This document shows positions 6,001 to 12,000 of a stretch of 64,000 nt of DNA, in pieces. Position 1 is the stretch's first letter, and each line of letters begins with the position of its first letter. The stretch lies in the IMG/VR virus record IMGVR_UViG_2684623171_000005; one strand, 5' to 3'. The DNA comes from a virus. Its lineage: Duplodnaviria; Heunggongvirae; Uroviricota; Caudoviricetes. Position numbers: made by a program.

Positions 6001-9000
6001 ATGATGCGGGACCAGCCATCAACGCCCACCACCGGAACGATGCCGTTCTGCTTATCAGGGAAGGCGTAAATTTCTTTCGTCCACGGATTAAGGCCGTACT
6101 GGTTGGCGACGATCAACAATGCGATGAACTGCGCATCGCTGGCATCACCTTTAAATGCCGTCTGGCGAAGAGTGGTGATCAGTTCCTGTGGGTCGACAGA
6201 ATCCATGCCGACACGTTCAGCCAGCTTCCCTGCCAGCGTTGCGAGTGCTGTACTCATCCGCTTTATACCTCTGAATCAATATCAACCTGGTGGTGAGCAA
6301 TGGTTTCAACCATGTACCGGATGTGTTCTGCCATGCGCTCCTGAAACTCAACATCGTCATCAAACGCACGGGTAATGGCTTTTTTGCTGGCCCCGTGGCG
6401 TTGCAAATGATCGATGCAGAGTGATTCAAACAGGTGCTGGGGCAGACCTTTTCCCATGTCGTCTGCCAGTTCTGCCTCTTTCTCTTCACGGGCGATCTGC
6501 TGGTAGTGACGCGTCCAGCTCTGAGCCTCAAGACGATCCTGAATGTAATAAGCGTTCATGGCTGAACTCCTGAAATAGCTGTGAAAATATCGCCCGCGAA
6601 ATGCCGGGCTGATTAGGAAAACAGGAAAGGGGGTTAGTGAATGCTTTTGCTTGATCTCAGTTTCAGTATTAATATCCATTTTTTATAAGCGTCGACGGCC
6701 TCACGAAACATCTTTTCATCGCCAATAAAAGTGGCGATAGTGAATTTAGTCTGGATAGCCATAAGTGTTTGATCCATTTTTTGGGACTCCTGGCTGATTA
6801 AGTATGTCGATAAGGCGTTTCCATCCGTCACGTAATTTACGGGTGATTCGTTCAAGTAAAGATTCGGAAGGGCAGCCAGCAACAGGCCACCCTGCAATGG
6901 CATATTGCATGGTGTGCTCCTTATTTATACATAACGAAAAACGCCTCGAGTGAAGCGTTATTGGTATGCGGTAACGCCGCGCTCAGGCGGCTTTGATAGT
7001 CATATCATCTGAATCAAATATTCCTGATGTATCGATATCGGTAATTCTTATTCCTTCGCTACCATCCATTGGAGGCCATCCTTCCTGACCATTTCCATCA
7101 TTCCAGTCGAACTCACACACAACACCATATGCATTTAAGTCGCTTGAAATTGCTATAAGCAGAGCATGTTGCGCCAGCATGATTAATACAGCATTTAATA
7201 AAGAGCCGTGTTTATTGAGTCGGTATTCAGAGTCTGACCAGAAATTATTAATCTGGTGAAGTTTTTCCTCTGTCATTACGTCATGGTCGATTTCAATTTC
7301 TATTGATGCTTTCCAGTCGTAATCAATGATGTATTTTTTGATGTTTGACATCTGTTCATATCCTCACAGATAAAAAATCGCCCTCACATTGGAGGGCAAA
7401 GAAGATTTCCAATAATCAGAACAAGTCGGCTCCTGTTTAGTTACGAGCGACATTGCTCCGTGTATTCACTCGTTGGAATGAATACACAGTGCTGTGTTTA
7501 TTCTGTTGTTTATGCCAAAAATAAAGGCCACCATCAGGCAGCCTTGTTGTAAATGTTGCAGGTATCAAGTAAGTAATTAGATGGAGCGCCATAAATTATG
7601 AATTCATCGTTTGTCGGGTCCATCTCCATCTCTTGTCCTATTGCCATTCTTGCGTCAGTGTCGTCAGTGTCGTCAGCGGCGAAGCATAAAACAGCCCACG
7701 CACCCATTGTTTTAAAAAGAACTGCAATTGGCTGTGGTTTTACTGAATTTGCGTTAGCGCGAAAATCACAAATCGCACTTTCATGAAATTCCATATATCA
7801 CCTCAAATAAGTGGTTTGCTGCCTAATTTCATTTTCTGGCGACCAACACAAGTCATCTTGCTGTCAGTTGTTTGGATTTACGGTAGCCTGCCGCGTAAAG
7901 AGCTACATTTGGAAGACAAGTTGAGCCTTCATATTTTCTGGTCAACGTTGTCAGTGTTATTACTTCTGCTCTCATTGCTGGTTTGCGTTTGCATTGTAAG
8001 ACCACTCGTGATGGGGTTGGCCTGTGTAGTTTGTCGGAGCTAATCGCCTCCTGACTTTGCAGGTTTGCGCGACGAGCTCTACGGCGAGAAGCTGCGGTGC
8101 CTTTAAATTCTGTTTTTCTGGACATAGATTCCTCCCGAATAAACTTTGGCGATGCAATCTCGAAGCTCCTCCTGAGACGGTTGCTTCGGCATTGCATCCC
8201 ACAGCTTATGTGGTTGGGTGATCTGGCTTTTCAGCCACGTAGTCGAGAGTCGACGTTGTTTAAAGAGCCTGCCAGTCTGTTCCATTTGGCTTCCAGCGTC
8301 CTGCTGATGGTTAAATAGTACGATATGTACTTCACTTGGTCAATACAATTTGTTCTAAAACGGGGCGTTTTTTTACAACGCTTTGTATTTAATAGTATTG
8401 TTTTTTAGCGTGGGTGTATTGCCTCGGCGATGTAAGGAGAGATCAGAATTGCGTTGTTTAGTGAGTTGTATCTATTTATTTTCCAATAAATACAATTGGT
8501 TATGTGTTTTTTTGGGCGAGAGGAAAAGAAAACCCGGCATGGAGGCCGGGTTGATGATTAGCGGTGTGGCCTTGAGCGATAATGCTCACACACATGTTCA
8601 AGATTTCCATGCCTTATCCGTTCATAGGCATTCACATGAACTTCTCGATCGAATTGGTCATTCAAATTGTATGTAGACATCTGTGTTTTCTCATATTGGC
8701 GGCAGCCCTACAACCGCTTGAAAAAATGTACCAGACGCGCTAAGGTTACATCGCAAATATTGTGTACCTTAACAAGGGCTCCTTTTGGAGGCTCTGGTTA
8801 AACAGCATCAATGTCGGACTGGGGAGTTGGACATTGTGCTGAATGCTTTTGCATTATTGAGGCCGAACGTAAACCTTCAGAATTGAAGAGATGCGTTCGG
8901 CTTCTTCGTTTGTGATATCGTTAGGAATGCCTTTAATCGTTACTGTAACCCCTGATTCAGGTCGAAGAACTACTGGAAGATCATAGGTATGAAGTGCATT

Positions 9001-12000
9001 AGCCTTGCCTTCGACTTTTGTTGGTTCGCCAGTCAAATCTTTTTCCTCACTGGATTCTTTGTCAATCGGAGTGTATGGGATTTCTTCACCAGACTGGAAA
9101 GCTACAAACTTTTTGATTGCACTTTCCATGCGGCTTTTATATGCAGTAATGCTGCTGTCGCTAGGCTTCGGCTCAGTTGCGTTGATGTATCGCTCGGCAA
9201 GCTCATTCACATCAAGCTGAGTAACATCACCCATTTCCTCTTCTTGGACTACCGTTAAGAGGCGAGCGGATGAGTTTTTTAAATTTCGAGCGGTGGCCTC
9301 CTTCATTATGTTCAGCGACATAAGCTCTTCAAGGAAGTCCTTGAATGCCTGCACGCTAACGTTTGACTTTGCCATTTGCTCTCTCTCTAAGTTATTGACT
9401 CAGATCGAGTTTATCCAGGAATTGATTTGCATGCAAGACTCAAGTCTTGAGAATTTCCGTTCAAGATCCACTCTCAATAAAAAAGGCCGCACCTCTGCGA
9501 CCTTTCATCTCCTAAATCTCTTTTCTCTTACCTAAAGAAACAGCAGGCTGGGTCAGCCCTAACAACTTCAAGTGCATCGGTCAGAGAAAGCTCCGTGCTA
9601 TACAGGTGTTATTTCATATCTTTTTGCATCCAATAAATTTTCCATCTGTCCAGAGAGCGGATGCACTTGATTCTTGTTGATGGCAGGACGTTTTTTCACC
9701 TGCCTCACCCTGCCATACAGGACGCTGCTCACCGATATCTATCGTCCGGTCATTGATGTTATAGACAATATCCAGATCATTACGGATATACTCAGATGGC
9801 CTTATGCTTTCAATGAATAGATGAACTTCTTTTTGACCGCTTGATACTCATGGCCATTAAACTCCATCTATCCTCTTTACCCAAACGTCTCTTCAGGCCA
9901 TTGGCTGGCGATAACTTTCCCCACAACGGAACAACTCTCATTGCATGGGATCATTGGATATTGCGGGTTTAGTGGTTGTAGAAACACCTGACCGCTATCC
10001 CTGATCAGTTTCTTGAAGGTAAATTCATCACCACCAAGTCTGGCTATGCAGAAATCGCCGGGCTCAACAGCTTGCTCAGGGTCAACCAGAATTAACATCC
10101 CGTCAGGAAAACTAGGTTTGGAACCTGTTGGTGCGGTCATTGAGTTACCTTCAACCTCAAGCCAGAATGCAGAGTCACTGGCTTTTTTGGTTGTGCTTAC
10201 CAATCTCTCCGCATCACCTTTGGTAAAGGTTCTGAGTTCTGGAGAGAACATCCCAGCCTGAACATGAGAAAAAACAGGGTACTCATATTGTTTTTTAACT
10301 GGGGCCGATGAGTATTCGCCAACAGGTGAAAATGTCCCGTCGTGGTTGAATGATATGTTATCAATACCAAGGTATTTAAACACCACACCAATATCACTAA
10401 GAGATGGATGACGAGATCCGCGCAACCAGTGTCCAATTCCACCCTGCGTCATACCTAGCTCTTCGGCTAACTTCTCTTGAGTTATGCCGAGCTCTTTCAT
10501 TCTGGATCTAGCCAGTTCATACCATTTCATTTTCATGTCCTTATTATTACGCTCTGTACTGGAACCATCCATGCACAATGTGTATTTTTACTTGTATTTG
10601 AGAAGTACATATTGTATTTTTTATTCGTGGTTACTATGGAGGGCATATGAGCAACCTACGAAAATATCGAGAGTCACTGAATATCTCTCAAACAACACTT
10701 GCTAAGGCAGTTGGATGCACACAGGGAGCTATCGGACATTGGGAATCTGGTCGTCGCTTCCCAGACCTTAAAACATGCCGTGCTCTTGTTGCGTGTCTAA
10801 ACAAGTTAGGCGCAAAAGTAAGTCTTGATGACGTGTTCCCGCCGGAGCACAAAGCCGCTTAATAAGCGGAGCCGCTCTTTGTAACAACGGACATTCGTCC
10901 TACGTCGCTGAAAAGCGAGTCCCAAGATATCTGACCAACTAAGGCCATATGCGTTTCCACGCATACCTTTCAACTAACTATTCACTATTGGAAATCTTAA
11001 GAAATGGAACGAACAAGTTACAGCAAACTATCACAGCGCGACGTTGATCGCGCAGAAACAGATTTACTCATCAACCTGTCAACGCTTACACAGCGCGGTC
11101 TGGCAAAGATGATTGGCTGTCATGAATCGAAGATAAGCAGAACGGACTGGCGGTTTATTGCTTCGGTCTTGTGTGCTTTCGGAATGGCATCAGACATCAG
11201 TCCGATTAGCAGGGCTTTTAAGTATGCGCTTGATGAAATCACAAAGAAAAAATCCCCGGCTGCCACCGAGGATTTTAAGCAAATTGATATGCAATTCTGA
11301 GGGAATTACTGGATCAATCCACAGGAGTAATTATGACAAAACGTCGTAAGAAATACCAGGAAAAAGAAGAGATTCGACACCCTGATTCACCTGAGGGATT
11401 AGTGGTAGCCGCAGCAAATAACAGGGCGTTCGCAGAGCGCCTTGTTGGTGTTTACAGACTAGCCAAAGCAGGAGTGAAACATGGGCGTCGTTAAGTTAGC
11501 TGATTACAGGCCTCAACTGGAGGTCGTGGAGCATCGCGTGGCAGATACCGAAGATGGTTTCATGCGCGTTGCTAACGAGATTACCGACAGTCTGCTGATG
11601 GCTGATTTAACCGTCCGGCAGTTGAAGGTGATGCTCGCTATCATGCGCAAGACATACGGATTCAATAAGCCGATGGATCGACTCACAAACACGCAGATAG
11701 CAGCCATGACAGGTATTCATCACACTCATGTTTGCGCTGCCAAGCGCCAGCTTATTGAGCGTAAATTCCTCATTGCTGATGGCGTGAAAATCGGAGTGAA
11801 CAAGGTGGTTTCTCAGTGGATTAGCCAGGACAGCTTAACATTAGCTAAAACAGCTAATAAAACATTAGCCAAGTCGGCTAATGGGTATAAGCCAAGTCAG
11901 CTAAACACAAAAGACAATATACAAAAGACAATAAATACAAATACCCCCTTACCCCCTAACGGGGATGGCGATGGGCAGGTTAAACCTGAACGTCGCAAGG

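Follow-up and report, generated by a model that had tools for sequence, protein, structure and literature searches.

A mobile cassette in the rex position of an Sp5-type Stx2a prophage encodes a predicted core-binding-domain protein together with a structured RNA and a small open reading frame

We studied the interval between the repressor gene cI and the promoter pL in IMG/VR record IMGVR_UViG_2684623171_000005, a stretch of 64,000 nucleotides (nt) from a virus of the class Caudoviricetes (hereafter the window), which is an Sp5/VT2-Sakai-type Stx2a prophage at 100% identity. The interval contains ORF23 (also ECs1184 or H0093), an open reading frame (ORF) of 173 amino acids (aa), which we find to be part of a unit with a structured intercistronic RNA and a 40-codon ORF, H0092. 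According to its structural model, ORF23 is a stand-alone tyrosine-recombinase core-binding (CB, SAM-like) four-helix domain with a small beta-hairpin-helix domain behind it. We consider it plausible, at a little less than an even chance, that ORF23 is a nucleic-acid-binding regulator or sensor that controls the small partner ORF in an addiction- or abortive-infection-like module. The anatomy of the unit is solid; its function we infer, and this applies to the binding targets of ORF23, the toxicity of the partner ORF and any effect against phages.

The part of the window from 8300 to 9900 was identical (100%) to 44 phage records, including VT2-Sakai, Stx2 II, 1717, 2851 and the PA series, and the complete region was found in 220 of 5,426 complete Escherichia coli genomes. 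Prophage Sp5 of strain Sakai carries the ORF as ECs_1184 and cI as ECs_1185. The gene order, N (7853-8125), nutL, pL/OL (8315-8390), a tImm-like terminator, the cassette, cI (9877-10530) and cro, agrees with the record annotations of AP000422 and AP005154. Read on the minus strand, right to left from cI, the interval starts with a decayed gene and a hairpin terminator; a candidate promoter and the 173-aa ORF come next, then a spacer, the 40-codon ORF and a second terminator, beyond which lies OL/pL (Table 1). Window 8437-8552 shared 87-88% identity with the DNA abutting rexB in lambda lysogens, and the tImm junction 87-89% with the rexB-proximal DNA of lambda-type prophages. The placement of ORF23 between cI and pL, in the position of lambda rexAB, was correctly called in the original prediction, as was the acidic ORF itself (minus strand, ATG start, isoelectric point (pI) 4.85, 29 D+E against 21 K+R). 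The interval then proposed for the cassette, 8516-9502, is nearly matched by the limits of homology to Salmonella phage Oslo (8522 and 9503). Its treatment as a single gene needs amendment, as the cassette also holds the 173-nt structured spacer and H0092. The GC content of the cassette (0.43-0.46) was the same as that of its flanks, and we rejected the idea that the cassette is foreign by nucleotide composition, which is not atypical.

Table 1. Positions of the cassette features in the window, and of corresponding features in related loci (L numbers, each with its own numbering).
Feature	Position	Strand	Remarks
ECs1184 / ORF23 / H0093, 173 aa, phrog_2602	8854..9375	-	predicted core-binding (SAM-like) domain aa 8-95; linker aa 100-129; beta-hairpin and helix aa 130-168
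Structured intercistronic spacer, 173 nt	8681..8853	-	hairpin 8803-8841; long-range helix enclosing inner hairpins
H0092, 40-codon ORF, phrog_21154	8558..8680	-	second cistron; conservation in Oslo and SH2026Stx1
Sigma70-like promoter (candidate)	9408..9436	-	-35 TTGCAT 9431-9436, 17-nt spacer, -10 TAAACT 9408-9413
Predicted 5' untranslated region (UTR)	9376..9407	-	expected start about 9400-9402; GATC 9403-9406; then GAGAGAG ribosome-binding region
Palindrome AAGACT-N2-AGTCTT, candidate operator	9435..9448		adjoins the -35 hexamer
Predicted intrinsic terminator, upstream	9475..9506	-	stem 9481-9506, then U run; insulates from cI/pRM transcription
Lambda tImm-like intrinsic terminator (predicted)	8521..8552	-	stem 8531-8552, U-rich tail 8521-8530; from terminator scan
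Exchangeable slot, entire	8554..9878	-	limits are the tImm junction and the cI stop codon; from SF-088 flank comparison
Frameshifted DUF3024 gene remnant	9534..9867	-	tblastn to SH2026Stx1_00021
Slot cargo of SF-088	L029 3663-4969		two unrelated genes, PDC-M24A/B-like candidate defence system (DUF6978-like and DUF1828)
P57, 57-aa basic ORF, pI about 10	L013 5675-5845; L077 3512-3688; L087 3690-3857		phrog_33859
P57-type structured RNA, about 154 nt	L013 5521-5677; L069 3518-3671; L087 3534-3692; L018 5539-5692; L007 3740-3893
47-aa small ORF	L056 3690-3833; L064 1926-2069; L068 about 3734-3877		CxxC...CxC, like a zinc ribbon
Protein of about 198 aa with two transmembrane (TM) helices	L023 5555-6154; L026 1594-2190; L033 3061-3657; L034 3739-4338; L010 5555-6145

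ORF23 aligned over residues 1-173 to profile positions 1-173 of phrog_2602, a family of unassigned function (E 3.5e-102). An AlphaFold2 model built from an 80-sequence alignment reached a mean predicted local distance difference test (pLDDT) score of 89 and consisted of four helices at the N-terminus, a low-confidence, acidic and disordered linker, and a beta-hairpin with a helix at the C-terminus. We identified sub-threshold matches to the Pfam families Phage_int_SAM_1/3/4/6 in 11 of the 80 family members (best E 7.7e-5), and one member is named 'Core-binding (CB) domain-containing protein' in UniRef. Profile searches of Pfam, NCBIfam and PADLOC gave no match above threshold for ORF23, a Foldseek search of PDB and BFVD returned nothing at E <= 0.001, and a profile search of PDB sequences yielded nothing meaningful. 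The absence of a catalytic motif noted in the original prediction holds, as we could not find a Phage_integrase match or an R-H-R-Y site, and only the beta-hairpin and helix occupy the place of a catalytic domain; the absence of a DNA-binding motif does not, given the recognisable integrase-type fold. Neither Pfam nor the structure model revealed a nuclease, NTPase, membrane or other effector domain, and PADLOC, Pfam and NCBIfam gave no match to RexA or RexB for either ORF23 or H0092, both of which lack a transmembrane segment. We also considered that ORF23 might be a decoy of the CB domain of the phage's own integrase and found no support for this, with hhalign probabilities of 0.3-2.5% against the integrases of Sp5 and of Yersinia phage YP3.

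The family is large, with an exhaustive profile search recovering 636 clusters (at 50% identity) at E <= 0.001, 237 of them at E <= 1e-10. Nearly all of the best 150 of the 636 clusters are 157-208 aa long and align along almost the whole profile; exceptions are a truncated protein of 110 aa, one of 238 aa, and one of 2,285 aa that matches over a short stretch only. Members were found in Enterobacterales, Alphaproteobacteria, Lysobacterales, Wenzhouxiangella and Fibrobacterales. The family is basic overall (median pI 9.0), its enterobacterial members being acidic because of their acidic linker. Conservation is highest at T28, Y79, R82 and F90 of the N-terminal domain and at P134, R138, P151, D153, L154, E158 and A159 of the C-terminal domain.

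The promoter candidate first proposed for ORF23, TTGCAT-17-TAAACT, has its hexamers and spacing as originally read, and its position is kept in homologous loci. Among 30 distinct upstream sequences of ORF23 homologues, gathered from phage records, genomes and IMG/VR contigs, 28 contain TTGnnn-N17/18-TAnnnT with a -10 hexamer that ends 25-34 nt before the ATG, compared with 3.1 +/- 1.7 in shuffled sequences, and both exceptions have TTGACT-17-AAAAAT in the corresponding position. Sp5 and Proteus agree in the hexamers and in the distance between them, with a spacer sequence that is almost wholly different. A generic promoter scan (threshold 9/12) did not list this promoter, nor was the region enriched in promoter-like sites; judged by consensus match alone it appears no better than chance, and its support is conservation. 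Further downstream, the 5' UTR segment CGATCTGnnTCAAnAACTTAGAGAGA is kept in Oslo and Proteus. Control of the promoter by cI or LexA was considered and rejected, as no cI operator-like site scored better than 11/17, and neither such a site nor a LexA box was found within 9380-9520. We did identify a candidate operator, the palindrome beside the -35 hexamer, and AGTCTT/AAGACT pairs are present at -65 to -77 in five of the six allele types that are at least 52% identical to Sp5 (the exception being locus L068), with CGATCG/TGATCG sites in their place in more distant ORF23 alleles.

Predicted intrinsic terminators bound the unit. The upstream hairpin (-15.9 kcal/mol, z -3.9) has the form GGTCGCAGArrTGCGGCC with a T run behind it, is found again in Oslo, SH2026Stx1 and Proteus prophages (four phage types with Sp5), and lies at the right-hand limit of Oslo homology, at 9503. 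The tImm-like hairpin (-14.3 kcal/mol, z -5.5) is annotated as rho-independent in AP000422 and would close the cassette transcript just before OL/pL. That the ORF is bracketed by terminators is accordingly right in so far as both are stable hairpins with U runs, but the left one does not adjoin ORF23, the spacer and H0092 lying between them. On these comparative features, the predicted autonomy of the cassette is well supported.

We additionally noted an enrichment of GATC sites near the promoters of all ORF23 homologues (2-4 per 120 nt, compared with 0.46 expected), which in the window lie at 9403-9406 and 9465-9468. In alleles of 35-46% identity, the -35 hexamer has CGATCG and TGATCG sites flanking or overlapping it, and in Klebsiella-type loci the two arms pair into a hairpin that, with the T run behind it, overlaps the promoter. 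These sites could be targets of Dam/SeqA control, could form an operator, or could mark a terminator that overlaps the promoter.

The spacer downstream of ORF23 is predicted to be structured, with a hairpin 3' of the ORF23 stop of -21.2 kcal/mol (z -4.4) and, in an RNAalifold consensus of four spacer sequences, 49 pairs of which 8 have compensatory double changes. In the predicted fold a U-rich stretch of the spacer is paired with the GAGA ribosome-binding region of H0092. We could not find an Rfam family in window 7300-11100, or one for the structured RNA of related loci (Rfam 15). The second cistron, H0092, matches phrog_21154 (E 5e-8); its aa identity is 95% to the version in phage Oslo and, over 28 aa, 57% to that of SH2026Stx1, with substitutions by codon position of 3/0/6 between Sp5 and Oslo and 22/13/25 between Sp5 and SH2026. 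Prophages that have the same backbone with different cargo are without H0092, which is thus a member of the cassette and not of the shared backbone.

In this region we also noted an inversion of the hairpin tip 3' of the ORF23 stop, which reads CCAACT-CCCC-AGTCCG in Sp5 and L056, and CAGACT-GGGG-AGTTGG in Oslo and L064, with the stem and its pairing kept (window 8803-8841, compared with L003 3532-3570 and L064). In the Stx1 phage SH2026Stx1 a 38%-identical ORF23 homologue is followed at once by a canonical terminator, GCCCCG-AGGGAA-CGGGGC-TTTTT (L005 3535-3560), ahead of the H0092-type ORF, and this small ORF may depend on read-through or on a separate start for its expression.

The arrangement of a conserved first gene with a variable partner recurs across related loci. 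All enterobacterial prophage loci with downstream sequence, except those of Serratia and Pantoea, have a small ORF some 150-175 nt 3' of the ORF23 homologue, and we distinguished three types, namely H0092, the 57-aa P57 and a 47-aa ORF with a CxxC...CxC pattern. P57 (phrog_33859) follows after a near-constant gap of 151-161 nt in Proteus, Erwinia and Klebsiella-type loci and in L087-L091; its protein identity is about 82%, compared with a mean of 55% for the ORF23 homologues, and its variable columns by codon position (26/19/52) are biased to third positions. The gap before P57 contains a structured RNA for which we modelled 36 pairs spread over 7 helices; of the cells, 92.6% are paired, compared with 32-46% when the partners are slid, double changes occur in 17 pairs, and none of 500 shuffles equalled the observed value, these statistics being taken from an alignment fitted to the model. 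The model also matched the Serratia and Pantoea loci, which were outside its training set. The P57-type RNA has no Rfam 15 match and is a candidate for a new cis-regulatory leader or small RNA. Its covariance model found no match in the window, where the spacer is a different sequence class of similar layout. The 47-aa ORF is preceded in L056 and L064 by the same spacer as in the window, and followed by a tImm-like terminator.

Outside phages, distant homologues are translationally coupled to a protein of about 198 aa with two N-terminal TM helices in five independent contexts, the hosts being Lysobacterales and Wenzhouxiangella-type genomes; this protein had no Pfam or PADLOC match. Other homologues adjoin PDC-M34A with a PD-Lambda-3_B/HEPN protein, a Polbeta/HEPN protein, or a DrmC-like PLD nuclease. 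The recurring layout is that of a conserved first gene whose partner, either a small or a membrane protein, varies.

Comparison of flanks suggests that the unit is exchangeable cargo. A prophage of E. coli SF-088 matches window 7853-8553 (N-pL-tImm) at 93% identity and 9879-11300 (cI-cro-cII) at 97%, giving mosaic limits of 8553 and 9879; its cI protein is identical or nearly so to that of Sp5, the ORF23 cassette is absent, and unrelated genes fill the slot. Other prophages with the same tImm junction carry rexB, an NYN-domain gene or unassigned genes as cargo. Conversely, Oslo has only 8522-9503 in common with the window, at 85% identity, from terminator through terminator. The gene co-occurs with cI proteins that are mutually just 17-27% identical, and is not confined to the vicinity of cI: Klebsiella-type prophages (about 44% identity) carry the homologous unit behind replication genes (DnaC-like, DUF1627, DUF977), and in phage YP3 it adjoins the integrase. 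We conclude that the ORF23 unit behaves as a mobile moron, exchangeable cargo rather than a part of the cI circuit, and the earlier reading of an autonomous moron is supported by the mosaic boundaries, by the kept promoter and upstream terminator, by the slots of other prophages and, from published work, by the detection of the native protein in uninduced Sakai cultures. ORF23 as an obligate partner of Sp5 cI was rejected, as the SF-088 cI occurs without it.

PADLOC profiles matched only the neighbours of ORF23 and its homologues and the alternative occupants of the slot, which are defence candidates (PDC-S43, PDC-M24A/B, PD-Lambda-3_B and PDC-M34A). Between cI and the upstream terminator of the window, in the 370 bp beside cI, lies a frameshifted remnant of a DUF3024 gene, which matches SH2026Stx1_00021 in two different reading frames (residues 12-58 at 81% identity, residues 60-112 at 85%). 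In Proteus and SH2026Stx1 an intact DUF3024 orthologue separates cI from the ORF23 homologue, and that of Proteus matches the PADLOC candidate PDC-S43 (E 4e-37).

Published work bears on ORF23 in two ways. Sp5 genes of unassigned function were subjected to in-frame deletion by sacB allelic exchange in an MG1655 Sp5 lysogen, and ORF23 (ECs1184) and ORF21 (ECs1180) were the only two that could not be deleted, the ORF23 exchange resolving to wild type only; the authors, who did not find domains in ORF23, guessed at a role in lysogeny maintenance (Mondal et al., PMC5155283). Because that deletion failed, ORF23 probably matters to the lysogen, and the failure does not fit well with a simply dispensable accessory gene. 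In addition, native ECs1184 was quantified by mass spectrometry in the TRAPP RNA-associated proteome of uninduced Sakai cultures in MEM-HEPES, at a false discovery rate (FDR) of 0.065 (PMC7618764, 2025), although spontaneously induced cells could have contributed to this signal.

We propose that the working unit is 8521-9506 on the minus strand, shielded from cI transcription by the upstream terminator. Its own sigma70 promoter would give rise to a single leftward transcript of ORF23, the 173-nt spacer and H0092, which would stop at the tImm-like terminator before pL. As a sequence-specific regulator or sensor, ORF23 probably controls its own promoter through the AAGACT-N2-AGTCTT palindrome, binds the spacer RNA, or does both, and would thereby hold the downstream H0092 in check, the structured leader hiding the H0092 ribosome-binding site. 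The set would behave as an addiction- or abortive-infection-like module that is produced in the lysogen. A protein of nucleic-acid-binding type, a palindrome at the -35 hexamer, a structured leader and an interchangeable mini-ORF together suggest a regulator or sensor of a small partner. As a near-identical cI/pL backbone exists without the cassette, the reported essentiality is more easily attributed to something within the cassette than to the cI circuit, and an addiction-like module would explain why ORF23 alone could not be deleted. A bolder form of the proposal, which we think rather unlikely, is a new three-part conflict module in which a dead-integrase CB protein senses foreign DNA or recombination intermediates, or binds the RNA leader, and so gates a small effector, providing both addiction and abortive infection; the structured RNA, some 150-175 nt long, and a mini-protein of 40-57 aa that is interchangeable (in distant relatives, the 2-TM protein) would be its other parts.

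Several observations weigh against an addiction-like module under ORF23 control. The failure to delete ORF23 may be technical, as its authors name no cause and ORF21, a gene of the pL operon, failed too. Over-expressed tagged ECs1184 was labelled no better than green fluorescent protein (GFP) in a polynucleotide kinase (PNK) assay (PMC7618764); taken with its detection in uninduced cultures, this suggests a protein that is produced in the absence of induction and does not, in general, bind RNA strongly. ORF23 is itself acidic, its promoter agrees with the sigma70 consensus at 7 of 12 positions, and the change of candidate operators with the allele is possibly mere linkage. The coding status of H0092 is based on three sequence types, its product is neutral (pI 7.0) and not hydrophobic, and we could not find a toxin-family match for it; Pfam gave nothing for H0092, P57 or ORF21, and no family of PADLOC-DB 2.0.0 matched either ORF23 or H0092. 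In Serratia and Pantoea the structured RNA is kept, and a small ORF was not detected there. Finally, the gap between the cistrons is unlike that of classical type II toxin-antitoxin pairs.

Other explanations can be set against the same evidence. The proposal of Mondal et al. would make ORF23 an auxiliary regulator in the maintenance of Sp5 lysogeny. As a second DNA-binding protein it would silence a lethal early function, for example by limiting leftward read-through into nutL/N/kil or by acting on att/int sites, and would so be part of the phage circuitry and not cargo. This reading would account for the deletion that was not obtained and for the position of close homologues, always directly downstream of cI, and the ORF23 promoter does face pL/N with the tImm-like terminator as the sole barrier. 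We nonetheless regard it as unlikely: the SF-088 prophage manages the same pL/N backbone and an identical or near-identical cI without ORF23, the gene accompanies highly divergent cI proteins, the unit lies after replication genes or beside int in other phages, distant homologues occupy non-phage chromosomal loci, and ORF23 has no similarity to the Sp5 integrase. A further reading, in line with the function that the original prediction put forward, takes ORF23 as a conventional, dispensable superinfection-exclusion or abortive-infection gene that acts alone on incoming phages, the failed deletion being a technical artefact. The rex slot, the lysogen-type expression signals, the alternative occupants (rexB, PDC-M24A/B-like genes, an NYN-domain gene), the decayed PDC-S43 candidate next door and the defence-island-like neighbourhoods of distant homologues all agree with it, yet ORF23 has no PADLOC or NCBIfam family match and no nuclease, NTPase, membrane or other effector domain, allelic exchange gave wild type only, and the conserved structured RNA and small ORF are left unexplained. 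This explanation, too, we hold to be improbable.

It is a good deal less probable that ORF23 is an RNA-binding post-transcriptional regulator, acting on its own spacer or on host transcripts, which modulates host physiology and has no part in phage defence. The near-significant TRAPP result and the presence of a structured RNA directly 3' of the gene in all homologous units examined are what would be expected of such a protein, but PNK labelling did not exceed the GFP control, and the core-binding domains of every solved relative are DNA-binding. The chance that ORF23 is a non-functional ORF, arisen fortuitously or decaying like its DUF3024 neighbour, is negligible; although the adjoining gene is a pseudogene and the composition of the ORF is the same as that of its flanks, we consider the idea refuted by full-length conservation at 100% in the 44 phage records, by the occurrence of the region in the 220 E. 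coli genomes, by a family of 636 clusters, by a confident structure model and by the detection of the protein by mass spectrometry.

A moron in the rex slot is of a known kind, and it is the content of this one, a protein with only a CB domain together with a structured RNA and a mini-ORF, that is new. Like lambda rexA-rexB, the unit occupies the slot between cI and tImm/pL, with homologous tImm junction DNA, is oriented leftward and is probably produced in the lysogen; both may pair a DNA-binding protein with a partner, which is a small membrane protein in distant ORF23 homologues. In contrast to rex, which is co-transcribed from pRM, it has a predicted promoter of its own and is separated from cI by a predicted terminator, ORF23 has no sequence or profile similarity to RexA or RexB, and the partner in the window is a soluble-looking ORF of 40 aa behind a structured leader, whereas RexB-type partners are 4-TM proteins. 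The unit also resembles morons in the sense of Hendrix (HK97 gp15, P22 sieB) and repressor-adjacent defence genes such as BstA (PMC8585504) in being an additional unit, with a terminator and a predicted promoter to itself, that lies between conserved genes, adjoins the repressor and is absent from close relatives. It departs from morons in a composition that is not atypical (a frequent but not obligatory feature), in having three parts (protein, structured RNA and mini-ORF), and in being reportedly non-deletable, which is unusual for a moron.

With the CB domains of tyrosine recombinases (lambda Int 2oxo/1z1b, IntI4 2a3v, 3nrw), the ORF23 family shares the weak Phage_int_SAM matches, but sequence identity is just 7-13%, there is no similarity to the integrase of its own phage, and ORF23 lacks the catalytic domain and RHR-Y residues, ending after a beta-hairpin-helix domain of 40 aa. 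YopR is a recombinase-derived lysogeny repressor of SPbeta-like phages. Repressors of this origin (MrpR 8a0a, SroF 9rd5) differ from ORF23 in having the full two-domain fold and in being master repressors, whereas ORF23 would have the core-binding domain only and a classical cI/LexA-type repressor next door. As in type II toxin-antitoxin systems, an acidic protein with an N-terminal domain of DNA-binding type comes first and a small partner (basic for the P57 type) second, a palindrome lies at the promoter, and the upstream gene reportedly could not be deleted on its own. Those systems differ in that their genes overlap or abut, instead of being separated by 150-175 nt with a conserved structured RNA, and no toxin or antitoxin family on record was matched by ORF23 or H0092.

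For E. coli O157:H7, Sp5/VT2-Sakai serves as the Stx2a reference phage, and the release of Stx2 hinges on the stability of its lysogeny. The gene and part of its signals had been annotated previously, and among the papers searched none characterises the phrog_2602 family; we add the predicted fold of ORF23, a proposed transcription unit with promoter, operator and terminator coordinates, the partner ORF and structured RNA, and evidence for mobile cargo. If the unit is indeed an addiction or defence module, it would represent a new family of 636 clusters (at 50% identity) that extends well beyond enterobacteria, and would offer a handle on Stx-prophage stability; a conflict module in the O157 Stx2a phage would affect lysogen stability, and hence toxin release. 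If the failed deletion was technical, ORF23 would be one more rex-slot moron without an assigned function.

The other Sp5 gene that resisted deletion, ORF21/ECs1180, is located just 3' of N on the minus strand (window 7534-7794), and encodes a very acidic protein (pI 4.1) of 86 aa that belongs to phrog_2471.

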